From the IMG/VR virus record IMGVR_UViG_3300044859_001080, positions 1 through 64,000 of that record: a stretch of 64,000 nucleotides of DNA; one strand, written 5' to 3'. Positions within the stretch are counted from its first letter, which is position 1; every line of letters starts with the position of its first letter. The position numbers were made by a program, and so were the translations under genes. The notes beneath the pieces are model-generated. The model was not told the origin of the DNA and made no database searches. It saw only the letters and a list, made by a program, of their open reading frames with translations. The DNA comes from a virus. Positions 29,979-47,249 of this stretch are shown piece by piece.

Positions 29979-32900
29979 ATGCCAACTAGATTAAATATTT
30001 ATGGTCAGGCCATTTCAACAACGAAGAAAAGGCCGTGTATTGTTGCAACAACAGGTCATATAGTACTATCTGGAGCAACAACACCAACATCAATTGATGG
30101 GATTAATATTGATGTTAATGATAGAATACTGGTGTGGCAACAAAATTCGCCACAAAATAATGGAATATACAAATTAGAAACATCAGAATTATTAAGCCGT
30201 GATTATGATTTTAATATCAGTGACGATGTTTATACTGGTGTTGAGGTTTTGGTATTATCAGGATTAACATATTCTGGTAAAACATTTTATTTAACAACAA
30301 CAGATGAGATAACAATTGGAAGTAGTTTATTAACATTTGATATTCTTGCTGGTCAAAATGGAACAAGCGGAAGTTCAGGAACAAGTGGTTCATCAGGAAC
30401 AAGTGGCTCATCTGGAACAAGCGGAAGTTCAGGAACAAGTGGCTCATCTGGAACAAGTGGAAGTTCAGGAACAAGTGGCTCATCAGGAACAAGTGGAAGT
30501 TCAGGAACAAGTGGAAGTTCAGGAACAAGTGGTTCATCTGGAACAAGTGGCTCATCAGGAACAAGTGGAAGTTCAGGAACAAGTGGAAGTTCAGGTACAA
30601 GTGGTTCATCAGGTACAAGCGGAAGTTCAGGAACAAGTGGCTCATCAGGAACAAGTGGAAGTTCAGGAACAAGTGGAAGTTCAGGAACAAGTGGAAGTTC
30701 AGGTACAAGCGGAAGTTCAGGAACAAGTGGTTCATCAGGAACAAGTGGAAGTTCAGGAACAAGTGGAAGTTCAGGAACAAGTGGAAGTTCAGGAACAAGT
30801 GGTTCATCTGGAACAAGTGGAAGTTCAGGAACAAGTGGTTCATCAGGTACAAGCGGAAGTTCAGGAACAAGTGGTTCATCTGGAACAAGCGGTTCATCTG
30901 GAACAAGCGGAAGTTCAGGTACAAGTGGAAGTTCTGGAACAAGTGGAAGTTCAGGTACAAGCGGAAGTTCAGGAACAAGTGGTTCATCTGGAACAAGCGG
31001 TTCATCTGGAACAAGCGGAAGTTCAGGTACAAGTGGAAGTTCTGGAACAAGTGGAAGTTCAGGAACAAGTGGTTCATCAGGTACAAGTGGCTCATCTGGA
31101 ACAAGCGGTTCATCAGGTACAAGTGGTTCATCTGGAACAAGCGGAAGTTCAGGAACAAGTGGAAGTTCAGGAACAAGTGGAAGTTCAGGAACAAGTGGAA
31201 GTTCAGGAACAAGTGGAAGTTCAGGAACAAGTGGCTCATCAGGTACAAGTGGCTCATCAGGTACAAGTGGCTCATCTGGAACAAGCGGAAGTTCAGGAAC
31301 AAGTGGAAGTTCAGGAACAAGTGGAAGTTCAGGAACAAGTGGAAGTTCAGGAACAAGTGGCTCATCAGGTACAAGTGGCTCATCTGGAACAAGCGGAAGT
31401 TCAGGTACAAGTGGAAGTTCAGGAACAAGTGGAAGTTCAGGAACAAGTGGCTCATCAGGTACAAGCGGTTCATCAGGTACAAGCGGAAGTTCAGGAACAA
31501 GTGGCTCATCAGGAACAAGTGGCTCATCTGGAACAAGCGGAAGTTCAGGAACAAGCGGAAGTTCAGGTACAAGTGGAAGTTCAGGAACAAGTGGCTCATC
31601 TGGAACAAGTGGCTCATCTGGAACAAGCGGTTCATCAGGTACAAGTGGTTCATCTGGAACAAGCGGAAGTTCAGGAACAAGTGGTTCATCTGGAACAAGC
31701 GGAAGTTCAGGAACAAGTGGTTCATCTGGAACAAGCGGAAGTTCAGGAACAAGTGGTTCATCTGGAACAAGTGGTACTGATGGAACAAGTGGCTCATCTG
31801 GAACAAGTGGCTCATCTGGAACAAGTGGCTCATCTGGAACAAGCGGTTCATCAGGTACAAGCGGAAGTTCAGGAACAAGTGGTTCATCTGGAACAAGTGG
31901 TACTGATGGAACAAGTGGCTCATCTGGAACAAGTGGAAGTTCAGGAACAAGTGGCTCATCTGGAACAAGTGGCTCATCTGGAACAAGCGGTTCATCAGGT
32001 ACAAGTGGTTCATCTGGAACAAGCGGAAGTTCAGGAACAAGTGGTTCATCTGGAACAAGTGGTACTGATGGAACAAGTGGCTCATCTGGAACAAGTGGAA
32101 GTTCAGGAACAAGTGGCTCATCTGGAACAAGCGGAAGTTCAGGAACAAGTGGAAGTTCAGGAACAAGTGGTTCATCTGGAACAAGCGGAAGTTCAGGTAC
32201 AAGTGGAACAGCAGGAACAAGTGGAACAAGTCCATCAATAGTAGAATTATCTATTTCAGGTGCAACAAATGGGTCAAATAGAACATTTACCATTTCTCAA
32301 GAAATTGACCAAGAGGCTAGTTTATTCTTTGTTAATGGTCAATTACAACAATATGGTGATGATTATACCATTGCTGGAAATCAATTAACAATTGACTCAG
32401 AAAACCCAGCACCAACATCAACATACATATTAAAATTATTTGGCGGTGGTATTCTTTTTGGTATCAATGGAACAAGTGGAACATCAGCCTTTATTACCTC
32501 ATCAGCATCAACACCATCACCAATAGATGCAAATTCAATGTGTTTTTGGTTTGACACAGTAAATTTAGAGCCAATGGTTTCTTATTGTGGGTATAGTGGA
32601 GCAGCTTCATGGTCAGCAGGGGGTGCATTGATAACAGGAAACCAGCAATTTGCAGGAGCAGGAACACAGAATGAAGGACTTGTATTTGGAGGTACTGGTC
32701 CTGTATCTTGCACTGAAGAATATAATGGCACATCTTGGTCAACAGGTGGTGCATTAGCAACAGCAAGATGTGGTTTAGCAGGAGCAGGAACACAAAATGT
32801 AGGACTTGCTTTTGGTGGACATAGTTCATATGGTTCTTGCACAGAAGAATATAATGGTACATCTTGGTCAGCAGGAGGTGCATTAGCAACAGCAAGACGA

Positions 32901-33929
32901 TTTTTAGCAGGAGCAGGAACACAGAATGCAGCGCTTGCAGCAGGAGGTACTTATCCAATAACGTCTTGCACAGAAGAATACAATGGTACATCTTGGTCAG
33001 AAGGAGGTGCATTAGCAACAGCAAGATGTGGTTTAGCAGGAGCAGGATCACAGAATGCAGGACTTGCATTTGGAGGTAATGGTCCTTTATCTTGCACAGA
33101 AGAATATAATGGTACATCTTGGTCAGCAGGTGGTGTATTAATAGTTGCAAGAAGATTATTAGCAGGAGCAGGAACACAAAACGCAGGACTTGCATTTGGA
33201 GGAACTCCATCAGGATCTTGCACAGAAGAATACAATGGCACATTATGGTCAGCAGGAGGTGCACTGATAACAGGAAGACAAAATTTGGCTGGAGCAGGAA
33301 TACAGAATGCAGCGCTTGCAGCAGGAGGTGGTTATGGATCATTAACTTGCACCGAAGAATACTCAGCACCAATAGTTTTGATTGATAGTTCAGGTACAGG
33401 AACACCAGGTGCAAGTGGAAGTTCAGGAACAAGTGGTGCAGCAGGAAGTAGTGGCACATCAGGTGCATCTGGAACAAGTGGTTCGTCTGGAACAAGTGGT
33501 TCTAATGCTGGAATAACATCATATACAAACCCAGTTGATAATAGGGTATTAACCTCAGTATCATCAACGTCAATAAATGCTGAAGCCAACTTAACTTTTG
33601 ATGGTAGTGTTTTAACTGTTACAGGAACTATAACAGAAACATCAACAGAAAAAGTAAAAGAAAATATAGAAGAAATTAGTAATCCTTTAGAGATTGTGAA
33701 AAAATTAAGAGGAGTAGAATATAACAAAATAGGTAATTCTATAAAAGAAATTGGTTTAATTGCAGAGGAAGTAGATAAAGTGCTACCACAAGTGGTAATA
33801 AAAGATTATGAAGGTAAACCAGCATCTGTCTCATATTCAAGAATAACAGCAATATTAATTGAAGCAATAAAAATACAGAATAAACAAATTGAAAATTTAA
33901 CAAAAAGGATTGAAGTATTAGAAAAATAA
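29979..33929 (+). CDS. Long tail fibre: N-terminal fibre domain, Gly-X-Y (GTSGSS) stalk, Kelch propeller, peptidase S74 intramolecular chaperone
   Basis: DRILVWQQ..QNNGIY N-domain; 624 aa G-X-Y tract; six Kelch blades (32538-33389); STEKVKENI...IGLIAEEV...VSYSRITAILIEAIK S74-like C-terminus. Confidence 0.85.
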   Translation: MPTRLNIYGQAISTTKKRPCIVATTGHIVLSGATTPTSIDGINIDVNDRILVWQQNSPQNNGIYKLETSELLSRDYDFNISDDVYTGVEVLVLSGLTYSGKTFYLTTTDEITIGSSLLTFDILAGQNGTSGSSGTSGSSGTSGSSGTSGSSGTSGSSGTSGSSGTSGSSGTSGSSGTSGSSGTSGSSGTSGSSGTSGSSGTSGSSGTSGSSGTSGSSGTSGSSGTSGSSGTSGSSGTSGSSGTSGSSGTSGSSGTSGSSGTSGSSGTSGSSGTSGSSGTSGSSGTSGSSGTSGSSGTSGSSGTSGSSGTSGSSGTSGSSGTSGSSGTSGSSGTSGSSGTSGSSGTSGSSGTSGSSGTSGSSGTSGSSGTSGSSGTSGSSGTSGSSGTSGSSGTSGSSGTSGSSGTSGSSGTSGSSGTSGSSGTSGSSGTSGSSGTSGSSGTSGSSGTSGSSGTSGSSGTSGSSGTSGSSGTSGSSGTSGSSGTSGSSGTSGSSGTSGSSGTSGSSGTSGSSGTSGSSGTSGSSGTSGSSGTSGSSGTSGSSGTSGSSGTSGSSGTSGSSGTSGSSGTSGSSGTSGSSGTSGSSGTSGSSGTSGSSGTSGTDGTSGSSGTSGSSGTSGSSGTSGSSGTSGSSGTSGSSGTSGTDGTSGSSGTSGSSGTSGSSGTSGSSGTSGSSGTSGSSGTSGSSGTSGSSGTSGTDGTSGSSGTSGSSGTSGSSGTSGSSGTSGSSGTSGSSGTSGSSGTSGTAGTSGTSPSIVELSISGATNGSNRTFTISQEIDQEASLFFVNGQLQQYGDDYTIAGNQLTIDSENPAPTSTYILKLFGGGILFGINGTSGTSAFITSSASTPSPIDANSMCFWFDTVNLEPMVSYCGYSGAASWSAGGALITGNQQFAGAGTQNEGLVFGGTGPVSCTEEYNGTSWSTGGALATARCGLAGAGTQNVGLAFGGHSSYGSCTEEYNGTSWSAGGALATARRFLAGAGTQNAALAAGGTYPITSCTEEYNGTSWSEGGALATARCGLAGAGSQNAGLAFGGNGPLSCTEEYNGTSWSAGGVLIVARRLLAGAGTQNAGLAFGGTPSGSCTEEYNGTLWSAGGALITGRQNLAGAGIQNAALAAGGGYGSLTCTEEYSAPIVLIDSSGTGTPGASGSSGTSGAAGSSGTSGASGTSGSSGTSGSNAGITSYTNPVDNRVLTSVSSTSINAEANLTFDGSVLTVTGTITETSTEKVKENIEEISNPLEIVKKLRGVEYNKIGNSIKEIGLIAEEVDKVLPQVVIKDYEGKPASVSYSRITAILIEAIKIQNKQIENLTKRIEVLEK
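30360..32231 (+). repeat. 18-bp tandem coding repeat (~104 units, GTSGSS)
   Basis: GGAACAAG(T/C)GG(AAGTTCA | TTCATCT | CTCATCA...) units; three GTD and one GTA variants. Confidence 0.97.
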
Positions 33930-33934
33930 TACTA

Positions 33935-33942
33935 TATTTATA
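33935..33942 (+). promoter_or_regulatory. TATTTATA putative late promoter
   Basis: 15 nt upstream of ATG 33958. Confidence 0.6.
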
Positions 33943-33957
33943 TTAAATCAAAAAAAC

Positions 33958-34200
33958 ATGAAAAAGTATTATCAAGTAGAAAATTATGGACATGGGTTTA
34001 TTACCCACCAAGAAAATGAAACTGCACATATTGCTGGTTATCCTGGCAACATTTGGGTTACAGAAAACACAACATGGGCACAAAGAGTGAGTGCTGTTGA
34101 AAAGACAAAAGAGCAGGCTCAAGTAATTGTTGATGCTGCTGTTGCATCTTCATATACACCACCTAATAGCACAACTCCACCACCAATAATTTTACCTTAA
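33958..34200 (+). CDS. Small hypothetical protein (possible fibre assembly/accessory)
   Basis: 80 aa ORF with promoter motif and A-rich leader, directly after the fibre. Confidence 0.65.
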   Translation: MKKYYQVENYGHGFITHQENETAHIAGYPGNIWVTENTTWAQRVSAVEKTKEQAQVIVDAAVASSYTPPNSTTPPPIILP

Positions 34201-34211
34201 AAAAAAAGTAC

Positions 34212-34892
34212 ATGAATAAAGAATTGCAAATCACAGAAGATTTAAGAGAAATTATTAGTGTTTTAAATGATGAGGACGCACAAACCATTTTATCATTAAA
34301 AGATGAATTAATGGATAATTGGCAAAAAAAACAAATATTTAGAACTGAAACCGAAATGAGAGTTTCGGTTCTAAATGATGCCAAACATCCAACAAATGCT
34401 TCAAAGTATTGGCAATCAGTTAGGGAAATGTCAGCACATTTTGATGCCTTAATGAATTTAAGTTTTGATTTAAGAAAAAACACAGTTGATAAATTAAGAC
34501 TTGATAAGAAGGTTCAAGATTTGTTAGAGGATGAAGAACTTAATAGATTTGATATTATGGAAGCAAACATTGATTTGGACCGCAACATCTATGATAGAAA
34601 TTGTATGTTGCAAGTTTCCAAGGATAGAGTTAGAGAGTTAAGTACGTGGAGTAAGATTAAATCTGAATTAGACAACGAAACTTTTGACACTAAAAATGTT
34701 AATACTCATCAAGCAGAATCGCTTCACAGGTATTTTGAGAATAGGGTTAAATCATTAAATGATGCATCAGCTCCAGGAGAAATAATGAATGCTATGGGTC
34801 CATATTTATCATTCAATAGAATGAAGAATGAGGAAGGTACATTATTAAATTTTTTAGGAGAAGTTCCAGAAGACAAGAAGAAATTAAATTAA
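34212..34892 (+). CDS. Coiled-coil hypothetical protein
   Basis: 226 aa, helical and charged; FRTETEMRVSVLND.KHPT.ASKYWQ block. Confidence 0.7.
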   Translation: MNKELQITEDLREIISVLNDEDAQTILSLKDELMDNWQKKQIFRTETEMRVSVLNDAKHPTNASKYWQSVREMSAHFDALMNLSFDLRKNTVDKLRLDKKVQDLLEDEELNRFDIMEANIDLDRNIYDRNCMLQVSKDRVRELSTWSKIKSELDNETFDTKNVNTHQAESLHRYFENRVKSLNDASAPGEIMNAMGPYLSFNRMKNEEGTLLNFLGEVPEDKKKLN

Positions 34893-34895
34893 TTT

Positions 34896-35480
34896 ATGAC
34901 TAATTTTATTTACACAAAAAACAATGCACTATCAGGAAATGTTTGCCTTAATTTAATAAAGGCTTTTGAAGAATCTGATTTAAAACAACCAGGTGTTCTT
35001 TATGGCCCAGAGGGTATTTCATCTGATAGTGATAAGAAATCAACCGACATCACATTTGATCCCTCTTTTATGAATAAAGAACCTTGGTCTTTATTATTGG
35101 AGGATGTTATTGTTTCAGTTAAAACTGGTGTGTTAGATTATTTAAATAGGCATTCAACTGCAATGTCAAAAATGGATCCTATTGATTTATATACATATTT
35201 TAATATGCAAAAATATGAACCAAATGAAGGGTTTTTTGGTTGGCATTGTGAGAGAGCTGGTATAAAGCATTCTGACAGATTATTGGTTTGGATGGTTTAT
35301 TTAAATACTTTGACAGATAGAGGTGAAACTGAATTTTTTTATCAGCAACACTTTGAAAGACCAGAGAGAGGGAAACTTGTCATTTGGCCATCAGATTGGT
35401 CTCATTTGCATAGAGGTGTTCCATCACCTACTGAAACTAAATACATCCTAACTGGGTGGTTCACACATATAAAGAATTAA
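34896..35480 (+). CDS. 2OG-Fe(II) oxygenase (prolyl-hydroxylase-like)
   Basis: WHCE, WMVYLN, GETEF, HLHRG, KYILTGW. Confidence 0.88.
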   Translation: MTNFIYTKNNALSGNVCLNLIKAFEESDLKQPGVLYGPEGISSDSDKKSTDITFDPSFMNKEPWSLLLEDVIVSVKTGVLDYLNRHSTAMSKMDPIDLYTYFNMQKYEPNEGFFGWHCERAGIKHSDRLLVWMVYLNTLTDRGETEFFYQQHFERPERGKLVIWPSDWSHLHRGVPSPTETKYILTGWFTHIKN

Positions 35481-35483
35481 TTT

Positions 35484-36086
35484 ATGGATTTTTCTATACA
35501 TGAGGAGACATGGTTTTCCACACCTATATGGGAGGCAGAAGTTAAGAACATTGATAATAATGAAATAAAGGATTATTGTTTGTGGTTAAGGGATAACACA
35601 AAAGGTGCATTCATCTCAAATAGAGGTGGTTGGCATAGTAGTGAGATTGTTTTACCATTACCAAATGAATTAATGTCATTATTTAATAATCTTGAATTAT
35701 TTGCTAATGAACAATGCTACAAACATCTAGGTGTGGGAAACTTAAAATTGGGTAATTTTTGGGTTAACATAAACACCAATGGGTCATACAATCTTTTGCA
35801 TGACCATCAAAATAGTATATTATCTGGTGTATATTATGTTTCTGTTCCATATGATAATATGGGAGACTTGGTATTACATAGAGGTGATACAGCAGAATAT
35901 TTTTTGAAGTCAGATGTTGAGAGGGTTAGCACAAAGACAAATTCTTTTGTTGCAGTAAAGAAGCCCATTGAATCTTTATTTTACATTTTTCCTAGTTGGG
36001 TTAGACATCATGTTGAATCAAACTATTCAGATGGTGAGAGAATATCAATTGCATTTAATTTTATACAAGACAAGAAGAAAATATGA
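35484..36086 (+). CDS. 2OG-Fe(II) oxygenase, TIGR02466-like
   Basis: WVNIN..HDH..LSGVYY..FPSWVRHHV..RISIAFN. Confidence 0.88.
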   Translation: MDFSIHEETWFSTPIWEAEVKNIDNNEIKDYCLWLRDNTKGAFISNRGGWHSSEIVLPLPNELMSLFNNLELFANEQCYKHLGVGNLKLGNFWVNINTNGSYNLLHDHQNSILSGVYYVSVPYDNMGDLVLHRGDTAEYFLKSDVERVSTKTNSFVAVKKPIESLFYIFPSWVRHHVESNYSDGERISIAFNFIQDKKKI

Positions 36087-36721
36087 AAGCACAAGTATTT
36101 GCAATATTCCCAACACCTTTATATGTGGCAAATTATGAGGGTGATTTAAAAGAGGTTATTGAATATTTTGATAGGAATGAAATGCAAGACACCAAAGCAG
36201 GGTATGGTATGATTTCAAACAATAGTTATATATTGGATAATCCAATATGTGATGAGGTGAATAAGTTTTTTATGGAATCCTTTAAAGATTTTGCAACAAA
36301 TGTAATGAGATATAGATATGAGGATTTGCAATTTGCACAATCCTGGTTGACATATAAAGCACCAAAACAATTCCATAAAGCACATACCCATCCAAACACC
36401 TTATTGGCTGGTGTTTTTTATTATGATGCACAAGAGGATGATGCTGCCATTTGTTTTTCAAAAGATGTTAAATCATTTAATAGATCATACTTTGAGCCAT
36501 CATTACTAGATGATTATCAAAATCATTCATTCTCACAAGAGGAGATATATTATAAACCAAAGAAAAATGATTTTTTAATATTCCCCTCTTGGTTAACACA
36601 TGGTGTTCCACCAAACAATACAAATAGGGTGAGAAAAGCATTAGGTGTCAATGCTTTAACAAAAGGCACATTAGGTGATAAAGAAACCATTTCAGAAATT
36701 ATATTTGGAAGATACAAATGA
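36083..36721 (+). CDS. 2OG-Fe(II) oxygenase, TIGR02466-like
   Basis: FPTPLY, HTHPN..LAGVFY..FPSWLTHGV..RKALGVN. Confidence 0.88.
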   Translation: MKAQVFAIFPTPLYVANYEGDLKEVIEYFDRNEMQDTKAGYGMISNNSYILDNPICDEVNKFFMESFKDFATNVMRYRYEDLQFAQSWLTYKAPKQFHKAHTHPNTLLAGVFYYDAQEDDAAICFSKDVKSFNRSYFEPSLLDDYQNHSFSQEEIYYKPKKNDFLIFPSWLTHGVPPNNTNRVRKALGVNALTKGTLGDKETISEIIFGRYK

Positions 36722-37536
36722 AACAAAAGATATTTTTTAATTCAACGTTACCAAGGAGTGGTAGCACTTTATTACAAAACATAATGGGACAAAATCCTGA
36801 ATTTCATGTAACACCAACATCAGGTCTAATTGATTTGATGTTAGGAGCAAGAATAGGATACAATCAAAACCATGAATCAAAGGCTGGTGATACAGAAATG
36901 TGGAAAGAGGGTTTCTATAATTTCTGTAAAGAAGGTATAAAAGCATATGTTTCATCACAAACATCAAAACCATATTATTTGGATAAGAATAGGGTATGGG
37001 CGTTTTATTATAACCTATTATCAAATGTGGTAGAAAATCCAAAAGTAATATATATGGTTAGGGATTTACCATCCATATTTGCATCAATGGAGAAGAAGTT
37101 TAGAATGAATCCTGATAAAGATGATGGCACAATGGATAATATCAAAATGAAAGGGACAACAACACATAAGAGAGTTGAACTATGGGCGCAAACAGTTCCT
37201 GTAGGTTATTCATTGGAAAAATTACAACAAACATTATTGGATGGTACAGCAAAGAACTTTCTATTCATTAAATATGAAGACCTATGCAGTAATCCAGAAA
37301 TGGTGATGAGAAACATTTATAAATATTTAGAAGTAGATGATTTCAAACATAATTTTCAACATATAAGTCAAGTCACAGTAGAAAATGATGCAATACATGG
37401 GATATATGGTGATCATATTATAAGGAATAGTTTGAATATGTTACCAAATGATTCAAAAAATGTGCTAGGTCAATATACAGTTGATTCCATAAAGACATCC
37501 TATAAGTGGTACAATGATTTCTTTGGGTATAAATAA
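36718..37536 (+). CDS. PAPS-dependent sulfotransferase
   Basis: 5'-PSB loop LPRSGSTLL, 3'-PB VRD...FAS, IKYEDL. Confidence 0.88.
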   Translation: MKQKIFFNSTLPRSGSTLLQNIMGQNPEFHVTPTSGLIDLMLGARIGYNQNHESKAGDTEMWKEGFYNFCKEGIKAYVSSQTSKPYYLDKNRVWAFYYNLLSNVVENPKVIYMVRDLPSIFASMEKKFRMNPDKDDGTMDNIKMKGTTTHKRVELWAQTVPVGYSLEKLQQTLLDGTAKNFLFIKYEDLCSNPEMVMRNIYKYLEVDDFKHNFQHISQVTVENDAIHGIYGDHIIRNSLNMLPNDSKNVLGQYTVDSIKTSYKWYNDFFGYK

Positions 37537-37549
37537 AGTTAGGAGATGA

Positions 37550-37557
37550 TATTTATA
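37550..37557 (+). promoter_or_regulatory. TATTTATA putative late promoter
   Basis: 13 nt upstream of ATG 37571. Confidence 0.6.
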
Positions 37558-37570
37558 ATAAAAAAAGAAT

Positions 37571-38521
37571 ATGGCAAAATTACAAAGTACAGAAATAATA
37601 GGAGTTGCAAATAGACCTGCAACAATATGTTCAAATACGATGTGCATTTGGTTTGATACAGTTAATTTAAAACCAGTCATTTCATATTGTGGATATAGTC
37701 CTCCTTGGTCAGTAGGTGGCGCAATGATAACAGCAAGATGTGGTTTAGCAGGAGCAGGAACGCAAGATGCAGGTCTTGTGTTTGGAGGCTTTGCTAGTTT
37801 TTCTCCAAAATCTTGTACAGAAGAATACGATGGTGCATCTTGGTCAGCAGGTGGTGCATTATCAATAGCAAGACTTGGTTTAGCAGGAGCAGGAACACAG
37901 AATGAAGGACTTGCTTTTGGGGGAGGCGCTAGTTATTCTCCAATATCTTGTACAGAAGAATATAATGGCACATCGTGGTCATCAGGCGGTGCATTGATAG
38001 AAGCAAGGAGTTCTTTAGCAGGAGTAGGAACACAAAATGCAGGACTTGCATTAGGAGGTTATGCTAGTTATTCTCCATCATCTTGCACAGAAGAATATGA
38101 TGGTACAACTTGGGCAACAGGAGGTGCATTGATAGAAGCAAGGAGTTCTTTAGCAGGAGCAGGAACACAGAATGCAGGACTTGCTTTTGGAGGAACTCCA
38201 TCAGGATCTTGCACAGAAGAATACAATGGTACATCTTGGTCAGCAGGAGGTGCGTTGATAACAGCAAAATGTGGCTTAGCAGGAGCAGGAACACAGAATG
38301 CAGGACTTGCTTTTGGTGGTAACTCTTTTGCTGTGCCTGATACACAAGAATATAACGGCAGTTCTTGGGTGGCAGGCGGCAAATTATTATCAGTGAGATG
38401 TTCTTTAGCAGGAGCAGGGACGCAAAGTGCAGGACTTGCTATGGGTGGGTATAATGGTTCATGTGTTTCTTGTACAGAAGAATACATTAAAACAATCGCA
38501 ATAATAGATTCAATACGATAA
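37571..38521 (+). CDS. Six-blade Kelch-like propeller protein, cassette A
   Basis: Six ~46 aa repeats W.AGGAL..AR..LAGAGTQ.AGLAFGG-loop-CTEEY. Confidence 0.85.
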   Translation: MAKLQSTEIIGVANRPATICSNTMCIWFDTVNLKPVISYCGYSPPWSVGGAMITARCGLAGAGTQDAGLVFGGFASFSPKSCTEEYDGASWSAGGALSIARLGLAGAGTQNEGLAFGGGASYSPISCTEEYNGTSWSSGGALIEARSSLAGVGTQNAGLALGGYASYSPSSCTEEYDGTTWATGGALIEARSSLAGAGTQNAGLAFGGTPSGSCTEEYNGTSWSAGGALITAKCGLAGAGTQNAGLAFGGNSFAVPDTQEYNGSSWVAGGKLLSVRCSLAGAGTQSAGLAMGGYNGSCVSCTEEYIKTIAIIDSIR

Positions 38522-39564
38522 TATGGCAAAATTACAAAGTACAGAAATAATAGGAGTTGCAAATAGACCAGCAGTAATATGCGCTGATACTGTATGTTTA
38601 TGGTTTAATACAACAATTAAACAGTTAGTTTTCTCATATTCCGGTTTTTCAGGATCCTGGTCGGCAGGGAATGCATTGATAACAGCAAGAGGTTATTTAG
38701 CAGGAGCAGGGACGCAGAATGCAGGACTTGCTATAGGCGGGTATAATGGTAGTATTCTTTCTTGCACGGAAGAATACGATGGTACATCATGGTCAGCAGG
38801 CGGAGCATTATCAATAGCAAGATATCGGTTAGGAGGAGCAGGGACACAGAGTGTAGGACTTGTGTTTGGAGGCCGTAATCCGGGCGCTCTTTCTTGTACA
38901 GAAGAATACGATGGGACATCTTGGTTAGCAGGCGGAGCATTGATAATAGCGAGGTTTGGACCAGCAAGTGCAGGTACACAGGACGCAGGACTTGCATTTG
39001 GAGGTTTTGTAAATAATAGTAGTACCTGCACTGAAGAGTACAATGGTACATCTTGGTCAACAGGTGGCGCATTGATTAGTTCAAGACATAATTTAGCAGG
39101 AGCAGGAACACAGAATGCAGGACTTGCTTTTGGGGGAACATTTCCAAATGGTGATTGCACTGAAGAATACAACGGCACAACTTGGTTAACAGGTGGTGCA
39201 TTGATAATAGGAAGAGAAGGTACAGGGACAGGAACACAGAATGAAGGACTTTTTATAGGAGGCATAGTAACAAATACTGGTGTTTCTTGTACAGAAGAAT
39301 ATGATGGCGCATCTTGGTCAGTAGGTGGGGCAATGATAGTAGCAAGGCACACACTAGCAGGTGCAGGAACACAAAGCGCAGGACTTGCTATAGGTGGGTA
39401 TATGAATAATGGAGTTTCTTGTACAGAAGAGTACACTAAAACAATAACAATAGTAGATTCAATACGATAATATGGCAAAATTACAAAGTACAGAAATAAT
39501 AGGAGTTGCAAATAGACCAGCAGTAATATGCACTGATACTGTATGTTTATGGTTTGATACAACA
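38465..39564 (+). repeat. ~150-bp direct repeat spanning gene junctions (38465-38615 and 39414-39564)
   Basis: 78-bp identical core TAGATTCAATACGATAATATGGCAAAATTAC...GTAATATGC; 949-bp period; the first ~50 bp of the coding start also at 37568. Confidence 0.9.
38523..39470 (+). CDS. Six-blade Kelch-like propeller protein, cassette B
   Basis: Same MAKLQSTEIIGVANRPA leader and six repeats. Confidence 0.85.
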   Translation: MAKLQSTEIIGVANRPAVICADTVCLWFNTTIKQLVFSYSGFSGSWSAGNALITARGYLAGAGTQNAGLAIGGYNGSILSCTEEYDGTSWSAGGALSIARYRLGGAGTQSVGLVFGGRNPGALSCTEEYDGTSWLAGGALIIARFGPASAGTQDAGLAFGGFVNNSSTCTEEYNGTSWSTGGALISSRHNLAGAGTQNAGLAFGGTFPNGDCTEEYNGTTWLTGGALIIGREGTGTGTQNEGLFIGGIVTNTGVSCTEEYDGASWSVGGAMIVARHTLAGAGTQSAGLAIGGYMNNGVSCTEEYTKTITIVDSIR

Positions 39565-40416
39565 AATTTGAAATCAATGGCATCATATTGCACTTTTTTA
39601 GGATCCTGGTCTGCAGGAGGTGCATTGATAACAGCAAGACTTGGTTTAGCAGGAGCAGGAACACAGAATGAAGGACTTGCTTTTGGAGGATATTGTAATG
39701 AAGGTTTATCATGTACAGAAGAATATAATGGCACAAGTTGGTCAGCAGGGGGTGCATTAATAACAGCAAGACATTTTTTAGCAGGAGCAGGAACAGAAAA
39801 CGCAGGACTTGCTTTTGGTGGTAGTTATTCAGGTTCATGTACCGAAGAATATAATGGTACGGCTTGGTCAGCAGGGGGTGCATTGATAGAAGCAAGGAGT
39901 TCTTTAGCAGGAGTAGGAACACAGAATGCAGGACTTGCTATGGGGGGCGGTGGTTATTCTCCAATATCTTGTACAGAAGAATATGATGGTATATCGTGGT
40001 CATCAGGCGGTGCATTGATAGAAGCAAGGAGTTCTTTAGCAGGAGTAGGAACACAAAATGCAGGACTTGCATTAGGAGGTGGTGGTTATGGACCAACATC
40101 TTATACAGAAGAATACAATGGCACAACTTGGACAACAGGAGGTGCATTGATAGAAGGAAGGGGTTCTTTAGCAGGAGCAGGCTCACAGAATGCAGGACTT
40201 GCTTTTGGTGGTGCTGCTAGTTATTCTCCAAAATCTTGTACAGAAGAATATAATGGCACATCTTGGTCATCACGCGGAGCATTATTAATAGCAAGGTGTT
40301 CTTTAGCAGGAGCAGGAACACAAAGCGTAGGGCTTGCTTTTGGAGGAACTCCATCAGGATCTTGTACAGAAGAATATGATGGAGATATTTTAATAATAAG
40401 AGACATTATTTTATAA
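39472..40416 (+). CDS. Six-blade Kelch-like propeller protein, cassette C
   Basis: Same leader and six repeats. Confidence 0.85.
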   Translation: MAKLQSTEIIGVANRPAVICTDTVCLWFDTTNLKSMASYCTFLGSWSAGGALITARLGLAGAGTQNEGLAFGGYCNEGLSCTEEYNGTSWSAGGALITARHFLAGAGTENAGLAFGGSYSGSCTEEYNGTAWSAGGALIEARSSLAGVGTQNAGLAMGGGGYSPISCTEEYDGISWSSGGALIEARSSLAGVGTQNAGLALGGGGYGPTSYTEEYNGTTWTTGGALIEGRGSLAGAGSQNAGLAFGGAASYSPKSCTEEYNGTSWSSRGALLIARCSLAGAGTQSVGLAFGGTPSGSCTEEYDGDILIIRDIIL

Positions 40417-40487
40417 ATGTTTTAAAAATCATCATACACAATAGTAGATTGCGTCTTATAATTATAAAACCTATAAATAAAAAATTA

Positions 40488-41375
40488 ATGGATTTAACAA
40501 CAGAAAAAATTTTAGTATGGCACATTCAAGGTGGATTAGGAAAGAATGTTGCAGCTACATCATTACCAAAGACAATAAAAGAAATTTATCCAGATAGACA
40601 ACTTATAATGGTTGTATCATATCCTGAAGTTTTTCTAAATAATCCTTATGTTGATAGGGTGTATCCATTAGGTAATTGCCCCTACTTTTACCAGGATTTT
40701 GTAGAGAACAAGGATACTCTTGTTTTTAGACATGAGCCGTATCATCAAACGGGTCATATACATAAGGAGAAGCATCTGGTAAGTAACTGGTGTGATTTGC
40801 TTAATATAGAGTATAGCAATCAGATACCCCAACTTTTCCCAAATTACGCAGAGAAGGTTAATGCAAAGAAATGGTTTAGGGATAAACCAGTGGTGGTATT
40901 ACAAACATCTGGTGGTGATTTAGAATCAAAGAATATATATTCTTGGTGTAGGGATATGCCACAAGATATTGCACAATTGATTGTTGACAAGTACAAGGAC
41001 AGCCACCATATATTCCATATAACAAGGAAAGGTGGTTATGTTTTGAATGATACAGAGAGGCTTGATGTTAAGTTATCTAATATGGAGTTGTTTAGTATAT
41101 TGACAGTTTCGTCCAAGAGATTTTTAATAGATTCTTCTTTGCAACATGCGGCAGTTGCTATTAATTTGCGGTCAACTGTGTTTTGGATTGGAACATCACC
41201 CAAGGTTTTTGGGTATGACTTGCACAATAATATTGTTGCAAATCAGCCCAAAAACAAGAACCAATTAATTGGTTCATACTTGTTTGACTATCAGTTTGAT
41301 TTTAATGTACATGAGTGTCCGTATAGCACATTGGATGAAATGTTTGATATGGATTTTGTTATATCAAATATTTAA
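40488..41375 (+). CDS. GT-B glycosyltransferase, GT9 / heptosyltransferase-like
   Basis: GGLGKNVAAT, FLNNPYVDRV, IDSSLQHAA, STVFWIGT; ATG 40488 preferred over TTG 40449. Confidence 0.72.
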   Translation: MDLTTEKILVWHIQGGLGKNVAATSLPKTIKEIYPDRQLIMVVSYPEVFLNNPYVDRVYPLGNCPYFYQDFVENKDTLVFRHEPYHQTGHIHKEKHLVSNWCDLLNIEYSNQIPQLFPNYAEKVNAKKWFRDKPVVVLQTSGGDLESKNIYSWCRDMPQDIAQLIVDKYKDSHHIFHITRKGGYVLNDTERLDVKLSNMELFSILTVSSKRFLIDSSLQHAAVAINLRSTVFWIGTSPKVFGYDLHNNIVANQPKNKNQLIGSYLFDYQFDFNVHECPYSTLDEMFDMDFVISNI

Positions 41376-44087
41376 ATTTGTATGCTGTTTCAAATTAAGT
41401 ATAACATCTTCGGGTGTTATACTTTTTTGGCATTCGTGTTGTCTGGATGTTCCTTTATGTATTGGGCACCAGTTCCAATCTCCTTTATCAAATTTGAAGT
41501 TTGGGTTTGTCCAACAAGAGTTGCATACATTATGATTATATATTCTTGTTGTATTTGTTGTGAATTCATGATTTAAATCAGTGAAATTGTTAATCATAAC
41601 CACATGTTTATTAATTGCCCAACTTAACCAACTCAAGCCACTTCCCAGACCAATGAATATTTCAGAATGGTGAATATAATTCATAATGTTATTTATGTCA
41701 TAATTGTTTGGAGTTATGGCATTTTTGATATTATTTCCTTCTTTTGAAATGTTTATAACGGTATATCCTTTGCTATTTAAAAATTCTGTTAGTTCATCCC
41801 ATCCATTTGGGTATAGCCAGAATTTTAAGGCTGATGTGGAGTGGGTTGCAATTGTTATGTATTTTTCTTTTATGGGTCTTTTCTTTGGTATGAAATCAAT
41901 GGTTGGTTTTATTTCGGTATAATCTAGGCCAAGGATATTTGTTGCTGTCATTTGTAATGGTATTATATTTGGTAATATTGGTTCCATTTGATTATTATAG
42001 AACCAACCAAGGGTATATTTTGCATGTATATTTTGGGCAACTTGACCAGGTATAATGAACTCAATGTTTGGATATGTTTTTTCAAAGAAGTTATTCCAGA
42101 AGGTTGATGCAACAACCTTGCAATTATGTTTTTTTGAGAATTCATCAATGTAAGGCATCCATGCAACGGAATCACCAAGAGATTTTGAATCAATGGCAAT
42201 ATAAACCCTTTTATTGGTTAAATCCATATTAAAGACATGTTTCCCTTTTTGGTTGCTAACAGTGATTTCCCAATCAACAAAATATTTTATGGATGATTTT
42301 GTCCAATTGTTTCTCCCAATATTTGATTTGTATTCAATTTTGTTTGTTTTTTTATTTTTGAATGTAATATCATATCTTATGTTTGGACCACCAGTTATTT
42401 CAACAAATGGACCATCAATAAAATTAATATTAATATTTGGTTCAATATCAGTTGTTTTTAATTCATATATGTCAAAACTTGAAAATTGGTTATGAACACC
42501 TTCCAAGTCTGTTGTTACTTTATCAGTTAAGCATTTTTCAACAACATTAAACTTATAATCTTTGATTAAATCATACATTTTTTCCTCAAACTTCTTGAAG
42601 TTGATATAAAATATTAATTTTGTTTTGTAATAGTTAAATAACTCCAATAATGGGGTTATGTTGCCAGAAAAGAAATTGGTTTTATATCCATCATTTTTAT
42701 CTATGTTATTATTGTAATATAAAATTAAATCCTTTGAATTAAGCTGTTTATAATTATCATTTAATGTGTCAGAATATATTAATGTATCATAATTTACAAT
42801 ATGTATTTTCTTTTTGTTTAATTTATCTGCAAAGTTGACACCCTGCTTTATTAAGTTATAAACTCCAAAACTATGTTCAAAAGGCATTGAAGTACTTGTT
42901 TTTTCCCCTTTTGCATTTATCTTCCAATATTCAAATATAACATTATGTTCTTCATATTCATCTTTATCCAATAATTGATTATCTTTTGAATATAATACAT
43001 AATCACATAATGATTGGGTTTCTTCATCAACTGGTTTATTGCATGATAATATGATTTCTGTATTGATGGTTGACAAACATCTTTTTAGCATATTTTTTCT
43101 AAATAAGTTATTTGTGTGAGCCAATACAATGGTTACTTCATCTTCATTTCTTTTTTTATCTTCATTCAATAGATTGATTAATAATTTCTTATTCTCTTCT
43201 GGGTTATCTGTGGAATATACTGCCTTATTATCATAATAATTTTCATATGTATGTAAGTTTTTTGTTATAATTTTAAGACCAAAGGATGATGCTTCTTTTA
43301 ATGATAAGGGATTCAATTCATATATTGATGGGAAATAGAATAAATCAGACGCTTCATAATAATTCAATGGGTTTTCTTGTTCCCCGTGTATAACGCAATT
43401 CTTTGGTAAATCATCCAATATTGGTTTCCAATATTCATAGAAGTTTCCAGCCATATTTCCAACAAAATGAAATATTATTTTCTCATCTTGGCACAATCTA
43501 GCGACTTCAATTATTTCCTTTTGGTTTTTACCTTGTGTAAATAATCCAACATGTAGGACATGTTTATAAGAGGGGTCAAATCCAAGGAGTTCTTGTTTTT
43601 GCTTTTTCTTTGGTATTTTCTTTGGAATGTGGTATTCCCATATGGTTAATGGAACTCCTGTTTTTACAAATTGCTTCTTGCTCCATTCTGATACTAAGAT
43701 ATATTTATCTGGATGAAATTTTATATCATTTGGATTTGTCCATGATCCATGTGTGGTGACAAATATCTTATAACCTTGGTCACGTTGAAATATCTTGAAA
43801 AGGATATCATCTGACAAATTGAATTCAGGTACTTCTTGAAAATGAATAATGTCAGGACTAATGTTATTTATGTGTGTTAATATTTCAGATTTATCATCCC
43901 CAAGTGTAATAACATTTACAAGTTCTTTAATCTTATTCTTTTGTACAACATAATCACCGCTTACATTTGCTATTTCAATGACATAAATATTATATACAGG
44001 AAGAAATTCTTCAATTTGTTTGAGAAGATATTGCGGTAAACCCCCAGTTGATAAATGCGGTGTTACAAATAATAATTTTTCTTTCAT
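41364..44087 (-). CDS. Multidomain glycosyltransferase: GT4-like N-terminus plus C-terminal AAH/TibC-like O-heptosyltransferase
   Basis: PHLSTGGLPQY and FPSIYELNPLSLKEA (GT4-like); SKSLGDSVAW, FIGLGSGLSWLSW, CNSCW..CP..EC iron-finger motif. Confidence 0.8.
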   Translation of the reverse strand: MKEKLLFVTPHLSTGGLPQYLLKQIEEFLPVYNIYVIEIANVSGDYVVQKNKIKELVNVITLGDDKSEILTHINNISPDIIHFQEVPEFNLSDDILFKIFQRDQGYKIFVTTHGSWTNPNDIKFHPDKYILVSEWSKKQFVKTGVPLTIWEYHIPKKIPKKKQKQELLGFDPSYKHVLHVGLFTQGKNQKEIIEVARLCQDEKIIFHFVGNMAGNFYEYWKPILDDLPKNCVIHGEQENPLNYYEASDLFYFPSIYELNPLSLKEASSFGLKIITKNLHTYENYYDNKAVYSTDNPEENKKLLINLLNEDKKRNEDEVTIVLAHTNNLFRKNMLKRCLSTINTEIILSCNKPVDEETQSLCDYVLYSKDNQLLDKDEYEEHNVIFEYWKINAKGEKTSTSMPFEHSFGVYNLIKQGVNFADKLNKKKIHIVNYDTLIYSDTLNDNYKQLNSKDLILYYNNNIDKNDGYKTNFFSGNITPLLELFNYYKTKLIFYINFKKFEEKMYDLIKDYKFNVVEKCLTDKVTTDLEGVHNQFSSFDIYELKTTDIEPNININFIDGPFVEITGGPNIRYDITFKNKKTNKIEYKSNIGRNNWTKSSIKYFVDWEITVSNQKGKHVFNMDLTNKRVYIAIDSKSLGDSVAWMPYIDEFSKKHNCKVVASTFWNNFFEKTYPNIEFIIPGQVAQNIHAKYTLGWFYNNQMEPILPNIIPLQMTATNILGLDYTEIKPTIDFIPKKRPIKEKYITIATHSTSALKFWLYPNGWDELTEFLNSKGYTVINISKEGNNIKNAITPNNYDINNIMNYIHHSEIFIGLGSGLSWLSWAINKHVVMINNFTDLNHEFTTNTTRIYNHNVCNSCWTNPNFKFDKGDWNWCPIHKGTSRQHECQKSITPEDVILNLKQHTNLNI

Positions 44088-46118: not shown

Positions 46119-47249
46119 ATGGCAGAAGATATTATTACAATATACCCATTAAGCGTTGATGTGAATGTTAAAAAAACATCTGGTATTGGTAGAAAGGATG
46201 GGTCGCTTGAAATATTAGTATCAGGTGGGTTAGGTGGGTATATTATAAATGTTAATGGTAAATTAAATACAGGAAATATATTAACAGGTCTGGCATCTGG
46301 AGATTATATTATATTGGTTAATAATCCAGATTCTGGTCAGAGCATTAGTTTAACAAAAATTATTGAGGATCCAGTTGAACCAACTTATTGTACAAGATTT
46401 TTCCCGTTTCGTAATTTTTTAAATGATACTGGTAACACAACTTGTGATTATATATGTTCATCAAGCACATTAAGTCTTACCTTTTTTGTATATGCAAGAG
46501 GTAATACATTTGGTGAATTAAATAGTACATTATATAGGGGGTCAAGTAGTGCAGATTCAAAATCAAAATGTGAGGCTGGAATTAATATTTGGCCATCAGG
46601 GGATACAAGTTATAGGAAATTAAAATATAATAATTTTTGCCATTCAATTAGTGATTTAGGTGTTGTTACAGGGAGAACAAAATGTTTAGATATTGTTACA
46701 GCATCTGGTGGTACTTGGGCAATAGAAAATTTGAAAGTAACAACATTTAGAGATGGGACAGATATACCATTTGTTGCATCAACAACAGACTTAAATAATA
46801 TTTCAGGACCAGCATATACCTATTATAATTTCAATTCAGGGCTTGGGGATATTTATGGTTATCTATATAATTATGCTGCTATTACAGATGCAAGAAATTT
46901 GGCACCAAATGGATACCATATACCAACAAAAACTGAGTGGGATAATATATTTTTGGCATCAGAAATTAATGGTGTGAGTGGTGGTGGTAAATTAAAAGAA
47001 CGCAATTTATGGTTTGAACCAAATTTGGGTGCAGAAGACTTATATAATTTCTCATTGGTTGGTGGTGGTGGTTTGATAAATAATAATTTCATAAATAATA
47101 AAATTAATGGATATTATTGGACAACTACCAATACTGGTTTTGCAAATAAAAATTATATTGGATTGTTTTCATATAATGAATTATCAATGAGTTATATTGA
47201 AAATGTTGGGTTGAATTCATTTTATTCTGTTAGATTAAAAAAAGATTAA
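46119..47249 (+). CDS. SprB-like plus FISUMP domain protein
   Basis: DGSLEILVSGGLGGY..GLASGDY N-terminus; WAIENL..FRDG, YGYLYN, APNGYHIPT..EW, YSVRLKKD C-terminus. Confidence 0.75.
   Translation: MAEDIITIYPLSVDVNVKKTSGIGRKDGSLEILVSGGLGGYIINVNGKLNTGNILTGLASGDYIILVNNPDSGQSISLTKIIEDPVEPTYCTRFFPFRNFLNDTGNTTCDYICSSSTLSLTFFVYARGNTFGELNSTLYRGSSSADSKSKCEAGINIWPSGDTSYRKLKYNNFCHSISDLGVVTGRTKCLDIVTASGGTWAIENLKVTTFRDGTDIPFVASTTDLNNISGPAYTYYNFNSGLGDIYGYLYNYAAITDARNLAPNGYHIPTKTEWDNIFLASEINGVSGGGKLKERNLWFEPNLGAEDLYNFSLVGGGGLINNNFINNKINGYYWTTTNTGFANKNYIGLFSYNELSMSYIENVGLNSFYSVRLKKD

Follow-up and report, generated by a model that had tools for sequence, protein, structure and literature searches.

The blades of four six-bladed Kelch-type propellers encoded in the genome of an uncultured lake phage are related to one another out of register: exact DNA tracts and lineage-specific variants are shared between different genes and between non-corresponding blade positions. 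The genome is represented by IMG/VR virus record IMGVR_UViG_3300044859_001080 (85,297 bp, with a CheckV completeness estimate of 28%), of which the first 64 kb, hereafter the window, were analysed and supply all the coordinates given below. One propeller forms part of the fibre protein encoded by gene F (1316 amino acids (aa); 29979..33929, plus strand), which was identified from its open reading frame (ORF), its translation and Pfam, and in which our own segmentation places blades F1-F6 at 32610..33362 on the same strand. The other three are separate proteins, also encoded on the plus strand, by gene A (316 aa, a stand-alone six-bladed Kelch-type propeller; 37571..38521, with blades A1-A6 at 37706-38485), gene B (315 aa, the most diverged propeller; 38523..39470, with blades B1-B6 at 38658-39434) and gene C (314 aa; 39472..40416, with blades C1-C6 at 39607-40377). 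The blades were delimited by anchoring on the conserved W and T-E-E-Y, which gave six each in F, A, B and C, 24 in total, with lengths of 38-45 codons. We consider, at a probability of about three in four, that ectopic and non-reciprocal homologous recombination, in the sense of gene conversion with concerted evolution, has copied patches among these non-corresponding blades.

Shared DNA tracts and kinship of the blades

The longest exact match joins blades A3 and C4, in which the 88 nucleotides (nt) at 37972..38059 are exactly those at 39993..40080 (plus strand in both) and encode SWSSGGALIEARSSLAGVGTQNAGLALGG, with the variable IEARSS turn included. A 44-nt tract encoding FGGTPSGSCTEEYNG is likewise identical in blade F5 (33195..33238) and blade A4 (38186..38229), again on the plus strand. 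Both tracts are maximal, as extension by one base fails on both sides. These two identities had been described in the original prediction, which was made from the letters alone; both proved exact, and our independent segmentation assigned them to the same blades. Its further observations, that the loop of the 44-nt tract recurs in blade 6 of gene C and that a loop AS(F/Y)SPKS is common to A1 and C5, were also borne out: the TPSGS loop of C6 (40333-40364) matches A4 (38180-38211) over 32 exact nt, and 27 nt encoding SPKSCTEEY are the same in the A1 loop (37801..37827) and the C5 loop (40224-40250).

Several further tracts on the plus strand followed the same pattern. Blade A2 shares 54 nt (37867..37920) with C1 (39633-39686), a shift of minus one blade, and its loop, encoding YSPISCTEEY, shares 32 nt (37932..37963) with the loop of C3 (39953-39984). 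An exhaustive exact-repeat search of 32300-40450 also revealed 47 nt identical among A3, C3 and C4, and exact tracts of 41-42 nt occur between blades of fibre F. The 88-nt tract was found to be the core of an extended shifted match, in which 37879..38190 of gene A (the 3' half of A2, A3 and the core of A4) aligned with 39903-40208 of gene C (the 3' half of C3, C4 and the core of C5) at 90% identity over 312 nt, a displacement of 41 codons or one blade; aligned in register, A and C were 81.7% identical over 513 nt. There were 24 exact tracts of at least 30 nt, 12 of which joined different positions in different genes, with four at the same position in different genes, five within one gene and three at gene ends. 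The tracts at the gene ends are in register. A 78-nt tract at the A/B junction (38505..38582) equals that at the B/C junction (39454-39531), the first 50 nt are common to the starts of A, B and C (37568-37617 plus the junction copies), and the first 16 codons of the three genes are identical in DNA (37571-37618, 38523-38570 and 39472-39519).

The lengths of these matches were compared with those obtained after synonymous codons had been exchanged at random among the blades without altering the proteins. In 200 such shuffles, the longest inter-blade match had a mean of 28 nt and a maximum of 40 nt, compared with the observed 84 nt inside unit borders and 88 nt overall. Blades A3 and C4 agree at 28 of 28 core codons, whereas the next-best pair agrees at 22 and the median pair at 14; with column-specific codon frequencies, 28 equal codons out of 28 would be expected by chance at approximately 1e-9 per pair, or 2.6e-7 across the 276 pairs. 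Over all blades, codon identity at equal residues was 0.69, against 0.54 expected from pooled usage. A GENECONV analysis had been suggested as a check on recombination between the blades, and a GENECONV-like test, in which 102 polymorphic columns were permuted 500 times, was significant for A3-C4, whose run of 62 polymorphic sites was reached in 0 of the 500 permutations. Other pairs were significant as well, with a global p of 0.002 for A2-C1 (a run of 40 polymorphic sites), A3-C3 and C3-C4, 0.026 for F2-F4, and 0.044 for A3-A4, A4-C3 and A4-C4.

The kinship of whole blades showed no register either. Mean nucleotide identity was 74.3% between blades at the same position of different genes (36 pairs), 74.0% between different positions (180 pairs) and 75.2% within a gene (60 pairs). 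When the 24 blades were placed on a maximum-likelihood tree, the labels for gene required 12 changes, compared with a mean of 13.8 after shuffling, a count as low being reached in 35 of 200 shuffles; the labels for position required 17 changes, compared with a mean of 16.2, and 425 of 500 shuffles gave a count as low. All five supported clades paired non-corresponding blades, namely A6+B1 (96/93), B3+B6 (97/89), F3+F6 (98/96), A4+(F5+C6) (91/99) and C3+(A3+C4) (91/86). A blade-level nucleotide phylogeny, another check that had been proposed, thus showed that the blades cluster strictly by neither gene nor position. The first of these clades contains two neighbours: A6 (38366-38485) and B1 (38658-38789) are adjacent across the gene border, have a loop starting with YNGS in both, and are 92.7% identical over 55 nt.

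To compare the age of the copies with that of the genes carrying them, synonymous divergence (dS) was taken from the blades and from the 45 non-repeat codons at the N-terminus. The latter gave 0.88 for A-B, 0.74 for A-C and 0.10 for B-C. The blades gave 0.13 for A3-C4, 0.20 for A2-C3 and 0.27 for A2-C1, and mostly 0.5-1.9 for the B blades, A6 and F6; compared with the blades of the other genes, gene B gave mostly 0.5-1.8. Counted directly, A3 and C4 differ at 4 of 34 synonymous sites and the N-termini of A and C at 14 of 29 (Fisher p 0.002). The claim that whole-gene duplication alone fails, and that blades recombined out of register, is therefore upheld by a tree that clusters by neither gene nor position and by a dS of 0.13 for A3-C4 against 0.74 for the genes. 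No single blade shift was prominent in the dS table, as A-C gave 0.41 in register and 0.34-0.36 at shifts of +1 to +3; this flatness fits register-blind mixing and singles out no event. The low N-terminal value for B-C points to in-register homogenisation there, and, together with the 78 identical nt at the junctions, suggests that exchange in register also occurs.

The variable parts of the blades include types that recur in several blades of this genome. The turn IEARSS is present in A3, A4, C3 and C4, with IEGRGS in C5; the loop TPSGS is present in F5, A4 and C6, S(F/Y)SPKS in A1 and C5, and YSPIS in A2 and C3. Searches of 139 related loci, in translation, and of 120 homologous proteins gave 0 matches to IEARSS, TPSGSC, S[YF]SPKSC and YSPISC, and one match to the shorter string ALIEAR. 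As these strings (IEARSS, TPSGSC, SPKSC and YSPISC) were unseen in the loci and proteins searched, they must be innovations of this lineage that were later copied from blade to blade. Moreover, the types of turn and loop assort independently: IEARSS goes with four loops and TPSGS with three turns. Such assortment needs breakpoints inside blades or repeated convergence.

The end of gene C provided a further example of a displaced blade part. The gene ends with C-T-E-E-Y-D-G-D-I-L-I-I-R-D-I-I-L-stop, in which E-E-Y-D-G is the junction of an internal blade, and 24 nt at this end are identical to the end of C3. Behind two stop codons after gene C, in frame and on the plus strand, lies a relic of the ancestral C-type C-terminus (KSSYTIVDCVL-stop; 40424..40462), whose SSYTIVDC codons have the same DNA as the 3' ends of the C-type genes in related loci L007, L009 and L014. 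The EEYDG ending and the stranded tail together indicate that internal-blade sequence overwrote the end of the last C blade. The new 10-residue tail of gene C was still modelled as a closing strand by AlphaFold2 (AF2).

At the level of whole genomes, the blades of the window were 74.0% identical to one another and 66.4% identical to the blades of seven related genomes. The same within-genome excess was seen in L010, L013 and L034, and not in L007, L009, L014 and L017.

Fold, family and probable function of the propellers

The propellers have a Kelch fold. AF2 models were obtained with a mean predicted local distance difference test score (pLDDT) of 91.0 and a predicted template modelling score (pTM) of 0.85 for gene A, which was modelled from a 55-member family alignment, and with 91.9 and 0.86 for gene C; both models are all-beta with four strand segments per repeat. 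When the A model was compared with the PDB using Foldseek, all 45 matches listed (ranks 1-50) were six-bladed Kelch domains or Kelch-based designs, among them SAKe6, KLHL12, KLHL17, KLHL20 and KEAP1 (E ~1e-15), with template modelling (TM) scores of 0.66-0.71 when normalized to the query and up to 0.79 when normalized to the target, at a sequence identity of 15-23%. The profile of the 55-member family, searched against PDB sequences, recovered 9tsn_A, a 'Kelch protein' (E 5.7e-14), KLHL12 (E 6.7e-12) and KEAP1 (E ~1e-8). Pfam, however, assigned no family to A, B or C at E 0.01, and Kelch_1 (PF01344) stayed below its cut-off of 20.1 bits, with 8.6 bits for A (E 1.8), 11 bits for B (E 0.31) and no match for C. 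Thus the propellers are a divergent Kelch branch missed by current Pfam models. In PHROGs they matched phrog_27227, whose function is unannotated, and in the ESM Atlas the gene A-type protein fell into purely viral clusters, one of which is named Kelch-motif.

The repeat consensus reads W-S-x-G-G-A-L-x-x-A-R-x-x-L-A-G-A-G-T-Q-N-A-G-L-A-F-G-G-(loop)-S-C-T-E-E-Y-N-G-T-S, in which we take GLAFGG to be Kelch strand B, CTEEY strand C, W-S-x-G-G strand D and LAGAG strand A. Blade columns 2, 7, 8, 11, 12, 21, 25 and 28-35 are variable. At columns 2, 7, 8, 11, 12, 21 and 28-35, non-synonymous diversity (piN) exceeds synonymous diversity (piS) in a per-column comparison, recombination being liable to bias a codon model, and these columns are without a majority residue in the 55-sequence family alignment. 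Each blade therefore has two variable elements: one is the D-A turn (xxARxx), which surrounds the conserved A-R, and the other is the B-C loop, which leads from GG to CTEEY. As successive loops of a beta-meander alternate between faces, the D-A turn and the B-C loop are predicted to lie on the same face of the propeller, with the T-Q-N-A and N-G-T-S turns opposite. In Kelch domains, the ligand-binding face is the one carrying the D-A turns and B-C loops, and the ligand contacts of KEAP1 come from the same two kinds of loop. Selection presumably acts on these loops.

The propellers are probably host- or receptor-binding heads of tail fibres. The basis for this assignment is that the propeller of F stands between a collagen-like shaft and the S74 chaperone, and that 18 of the 120 best homologues also bear PF13884. 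The domain order of fibre F is an N-terminal domain, approximately 100 copies of GTSGSS, the six-bladed propeller, a short second collagen-like run and a C-terminal Peptidase_S74 chaperone, with Pfam matches to Collagen (E 1.2e-89) and Peptidase_S74 (E 2.5e-10). The GTSGSS array (30234-32240) consists of approximately 100 tandem 18-nt units and reads as Gly-X-Y, collagen-like without proline; shifted 300-nt frames of it are 62-91% identical to each other, and such arrays are prone to slippage and to assembly collapse. The 16-residue N-terminus shared by A, B and C, in which residues 1-13 of A have a pLDDT below 50, is modelled as disordered. It may serve all three proteins as a docking peptide by which they attach to the virion, and other clades of the family also have an N-terminus shared within each tandem set, for example MSTYYQIFGGK or MPLPSSGQISF.

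The family to which these proteins belong is large. At least 3006 proteins were recovered at E 1e-10 or better among 8000 candidates scored, and at least 655-690 stretches in two contig collections. All members are viral or metagenomic, and each source name shown for the 120 best was either 'hypothetical protein' or a metagenome label without informative content. In related phages, between two and seven six-bladed genes stand in tandem, with an N-terminus common within the set, and motif copies per ORF across the family number 5, 6, 12, 18, 21 or 28. Genes of A, B and C type were recognized by their N- and C-terminal signatures in L007, L009, L010, L014 and partly L017; A, B and C are therefore old paralogues, neither recent duplicates nor silent cassettes. 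Among GenBank phages (50,697 records, in which jumbo phage vB_PcaM_CBB was not looked up individually), megablast and tblastn gave no match to the locus or to A, and one remote match, at 29%, to B; no cultured representative was found among them.

Exact tracts between different blade copies are widespread in this family. Of 139 related loci, 120 were kept, those dropped having no qualifying propeller ORF or a propeller ORF identical to that of an earlier locus. Tracts of at least 30 nt were present in 87 of the 120 loci, of at least 40 nt in 56, of at least 60 nt in 23 and of at least 80 nt in 10, the longest being 119 nt, where different copies means those in the same ORF or those in different ORFs at positions more than 45 nt apart, and where equal and unequal positions within propellers are pooled for multi-propeller ORFs.

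Close strains within the family gave some additional observations. Loci L041 (8299-8401) and L045 (2169-2271) have 18 differences in 3537 positions, 12 of which fall within 73 nt of one blade and four more within 21 nt of another, a clustering that resembles an imported patch; the fetched DNA contained no donor with more than 83% identity. In two other pairs (L019:10195-13848 with L021:1026-4678, and L011:4318-10230 with L020:1122-8240), the flanks are 98.7-99.1% identical and the high-identity alignment ends at the 3' end of the propeller gene, so the propeller genes may be the fastest-changing part between close strains.

Proposed mechanism of copying and rival explanations

Gene conversion between blades would probably proceed as follows. 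The conserved framework (W-x-x-G-G, L-A-G-A-G-T-Q-N-A-G-L-A-F-G-G and C-T-E-E-Y-N-G) would supply many identities of 20-40 nt, and homologous recombination at these stretches would copy patches of approximately 30 to 300 nt irrespective of blade position or gene. A possible route is non-crossover repair, that is gene conversion, or else template switching; the copying probably takes place during recombination-dependent replication, which is typical of T4-like phages. The copying would have to be non-reciprocal, because blade number remains six, and each propeller would then stay six-bladed. In this way patches would reassort the probable receptor-contact elements over 24 positions in four proteins, and selection would retain useful combinations, giving concerted evolution with diversification. 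Homologous recombination is the simplest mechanism, as neither a reverse transcriptase nor site-specific recombinases of the families searched were found, all copies are direct, and metagenomes showed no variants.

With regard to the machinery, the original prediction had pointed to RecA, RuvC and SbcCD genes of the phage itself. A UvsX-like recombinase and an SbcCD-like pair are indeed encoded in the window, but RuvC (PF02075) was unmatched in the 85-kb record, in which other resolvase families were not searched. The enzymes present may take part in the copying, and the direction of each event is a matter of inference. Two terms of the prediction also need adjustment. 'Blade shuffling' is right in that recombination takes place between blades, but the event is patch or whole-blade copying at a constant blade number, not blade reordering, and is better termed patch copying. 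'Cassette' should not suggest silent donor copies, A, B and C being complete genes that have orthologues in other phages.

The state of the locus in nature was taken from public sequencing runs. The stretch 37400-40500 was present at 0.88-0.91 of sampled words in 24 lake or freshwater runs listed (2020-2025). Logan contigs (k=31) from four of these 24 runs, one of which may be the source of the window, were placed on 32450-40500, and all the unique pieces in the four runs had 0 differences to the window. The ends of the contigs fall exactly 30 nt inside the exact repeats (for example 33209-37597, 38287-38534 and 38553-39121, and further 39104-39483, 39657-39906 and 40051-40362). As a k=31 graph breaks exactly at repeats, those samples contain the same tracts, bounded in the same way, which speaks against the possibility, also raised originally, that the shared tracts are assembly chimeras. 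No Logan contig spans the 88-nt tract, k=31 contigs stopping at repeats of at least 31 nt; a two-copy direct repeat should permit only one linear order of the unique pieces. Tracts of up to 88 nt are also shorter than usual Illumina reads. No length variant was present in the contigs of the four runs. Two low-depth joints, from 38052 to 39833 in X10 (with 23 other letters between) and from 39746 to 40104 in X2, were not accepted as blade-order variants, being single contigs with depths of 3.3 and 6.1 that may come from other phages. The same tracts in four lake metagenomes without variants indicate that the process is slow and not programmed.

Several results weigh against gene conversion between blades, or against parts of it. 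A pairwise homoplasy index (PHI)-type test on the 24 blades (66 informative sites, 2000 permutations) was non-significant, 341, 229 and 898 of the 2000 permutations being as low at windows of 5, 10 and 20 sites; the high incompatibility at all distances fits saturation or very fine mosaicism, but lends recombination no support. The run test on silent columns, underpowered at 21 codon columns, gave a global p of 0.11, with a run of 18 of 21 for A3-C4 (pair p 0.012). Base composition could account for part of the higher within-genome identity. The closest relatives have 64% protein identity in IMG/VR and 68% in metagenome contigs of the Joint Genome Institute (JGI) and cannot date the copying; the collections scanned may omit records near the window's own genome. 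No ongoing shuffling was evident in the population, the four runs being without a variant in the unique pieces. The placing of the two variable elements on one face follows from strand order and meander topology, not from measured positions. Finally, sharp tract edges could partly stem from fast loop change after whole-blade copying, and for that reason it is less certain where precisely the conversion patches end, whereas the out-of-register kinship of the blades is firm.

This last point leads to the rival that whole blades were amplified or duplicated by unequal crossing-over and then lost back to six, with no patch-wise conversion. Continuous amplification of propellers from single blades, Kelch included, has been reported (PMC9218822), motif copies per ORF vary in the family as listed above, and A3 and C4 are alike over the whole blade except the loop, with 18 of 21 silent columns in one run. 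On the other hand, with four six-bladed propellers here and six-bladed orthologues of A, B and C elsewhere, every duplication would need an exactly compensating loss. Several tracts are far below blade length and cover a loop only or a core only (27-54 nt), turn and loop types assort independently, and tandem duplication cannot give an exchange between the fibre gene and gene A, which are 4 kb apart. We therefore regard this account as unlikely, though worth keeping in mind. Less probable still is that the tracts were imported from co-infecting related phages and not copied within the genome. Phage tail-fibre genes are well known as mosaic, and the L041/L045 patch, with 12 of 18 differences in 73 nt, resembles an outside import; both copies of every tract nevertheless reside in the same genome, and the tract variants are absent from the 139 loci and 120 proteins.

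Two explanations appeared highly improbable. A programmed diversity generator, whether a diversity-generating retroelement, a shufflon-type inversion or silent cassettes with an expression site, would be suggested by the tandem arrangement of several copies, whose loops vary on a fixed framework, and by the same 50 nt at three gene starts. Yet PF00078, PF00239 and PF00589 (reverse transcriptase, resolvase/invertase and tyrosine recombinase) had no match in the 85-kb record, estimated to be 28% complete; every copy lies on one strand as a direct repeat, each of the genes A, B and C is a complete ORF that has a start codon as well as orthologues in other phages, no variants were found in four metagenomes, and the differences between copies are not limited to one base type. 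Chance identity, convergence under protein selection with codon bias, or an assembly artefact is given just as little credence. A strongly conserved framework, an AT-rich genome and biased codons, with the codon identity of 0.69 at equal residues, do favour coincidental matches, but not of the observed size in view of the 40-nt maximum among shuffled codons, the probability of 2.6e-7 and the 28 of 28 core codons in A3-C4 against 22 in the next-best pair. An artefact would moreover have to reproduce the same repeat borders in the contigs of four runs, with tracts of at most 88 nt, below usual read length, and with one linear path apparently possible.

A bolder form of the recombination hypothesis deserves mention, although we find it rather doubtful. 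The four propellers could be a self-contained library of 24 turns and 24 loops, re-dealt by phage recombination often enough to yield host-range variants in natural populations. Equally doubtful is its premise that the DNA-level likeness of the blade framework is preserved for its own usefulness, in a retroelement-free diversification resembling that of antibodies or variable lymphocyte receptors (VLRs) and common to a very large family of aquatic phages (at least 3006 homologues). The codon identity of 0.69 against 0.54 and the tracts of at least 40 nt in 56 of 120 loci are compatible with it, and the four variant-free metagenomes weigh only weakly against it, since contigs drop rare variants.

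Gene neighbourhood and known systems

The propeller genes are embedded in a block of fibre genes and modifying-enzyme genes. A collagen-like tail fibre (27330-29837) precedes gene F, and three 2-oxoglutarate (2OG)-Fe(II) oxygenase genes and one sulfotransferase gene (34896-37536) lie between gene F and gene A. Genes A, B and C are tightly packed (37571-40416), with TAA-T-ATG at each gene border. They are followed on the 3' side of gene C by a gene of no assigned function and then by a large glycosyltransferase gene on the opposite strand, a 907-residue double glycosyltransferase at 41364-44087. The flanking oxygenase, sulfotransferase and glycosyltransferase enzymes may decorate fibres.

Elsewhere in the window, whose G+C content is 31.4%, are T4-like replication and recombination genes, which besides the UvsX-like recombinase and the SbcCD-like pair include a DnaB-like helicase, a primase, a ribonucleotide reductase and a sigma factor, as well as baseplate-wedge genes and a 5'-3' exonuclease gene. 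Proteins of the structural region (16630-17535, 23044-25242, 46119-47249 and 47253-48308) contain Fib_succ_major domains and SprB repeats, which are best known from surface proteins of Bacteroidota and Fibrobacter. Their presence may hint at the host, or they may merely be shared adhesin modules; a G+C content of 31% is compatible also with other streamlined freshwater hosts.

The propeller family sits where receptor-binding parts sit, in fibres ahead of the S74 chaperone or in tandem stand-alone genes. If its blades exchange binding loops, this would provide a simple combinatorial route for host-range evolution in abundant freshwater and marine phages, gene-level and blade-level phylogenies would be unreliable, and short-read assemblies of propeller loci would need care. 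The Kelch scaffold may tolerate loop swaps, like designed Kelch proteins. Compared with known six-bladed Kelch domains (KLHL12, KLHL17, KLHL20, KEAP1 and SAKe6), A and C have the same fold and the same blade number, and the phage blades appear to have the Kelch motif elements of a GG doublet, Tyr, Trp and Arg per blade, but they are shorter (42-45 residues), stand in a tail-fibre context and are without BTB or BACK domains.

Symmetry among propeller blades has been explained in other ways. Amplification of propellers from single blades was reportedly described by Kopec and Lupas in 2013. Pereira and Lupas (2022) attribute propeller symmetry to repeat dynamics at the DNA level and to birth from one blade (PMC9218822). 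The propellers considered in their paper also have highly similar blades and include the Kelch superfamily, but their case is recent birth from one blade, whereas the genes described here are old, have orthologues and apparently continue to exchange parts; the main text of that paper contains none of the terms phage, gene conversion, concerted and recombination.

Related gene islands and propellers have been described in phages. The host recognition cluster of pelagimyophages and cyanomyophages is a hypervariable island in the structural region of these T4-like aquatic myophages, with tail fibres, glycosyltransferases and other enzymes (PMC7029224). The position of the propeller genes between oxygenase/sulfotransferase and glycosyltransferase genes is likened to it by island content only, and propeller or Kelch domains have 0 occurrences in the available text. 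Jumbo phage vB_PcaM_CBB encodes Kelch-type six-bladed propellers, one of which was detected in the virion by mass spectrometry (PMC5259590); its proteins, however, reach InterPro Kelch signatures, and blade exchange is undescribed in the part of that paper available. Another phage propeller (PMC12002296) is a seven-bladed nozzle, not a fibre head. In the open-access literature, which leaves subscription journals uncovered, we found no description of a tail-fibre family of Kelch-type propellers in aquatic phages, nor of blade exchange in phages.

The T-even gp38 adhesins offer a likeness of design. In them, glycine-rich motifs flank hypervariable segments (PMC3157838), and, as in the propellers, conserved glycine-rich motifs separating hypervariable segments would ease the interchange of specificity determinants; an N-terminal attachment part is likewise followed by a C-terminal specificity part. 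The exchange there is between phages, whereas here it would be between repeats and paralogues of one genome. No homology to gp38 was found, the fold being unrelated and the Pfam search giving nothing at E 0.01 and, at E up to 10, only the sub-threshold Kelch_1; the resemblance is confined to design.

The HNWD family of Podospora anserina (het-d, het-e and het-r), in which the WD40 repeats of ten genes evolve in concert, both inside a locus and across loci, and diversifying selection acts on four surface positions of each repeat (PMC1805685), appears to be the closest described system in how it works. Both are multigene families of recognition proteins, probably so in the phage, whose propeller repeats are exchanged within and between loci and cluster by neither locus nor position. 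In both, each repeat has a few variable positions, which in the phage are predicted to be on the interaction face, and exchange reshuffles the variants. The fungal genes differ in encoding WD40 NLR proteins with a variable repeat number and in being subject to repeat-induced point mutation (RIP), whereas those described here are Kelch-type phage structural genes with a fixed six blades and no RIP. Taken together, the mechanism is ordinary homologous recombination with close precedents in fungal WD40 genes and T-even adhesins, operating here, if our preferred explanation is right, in a large and undescribed family of phage proteins.

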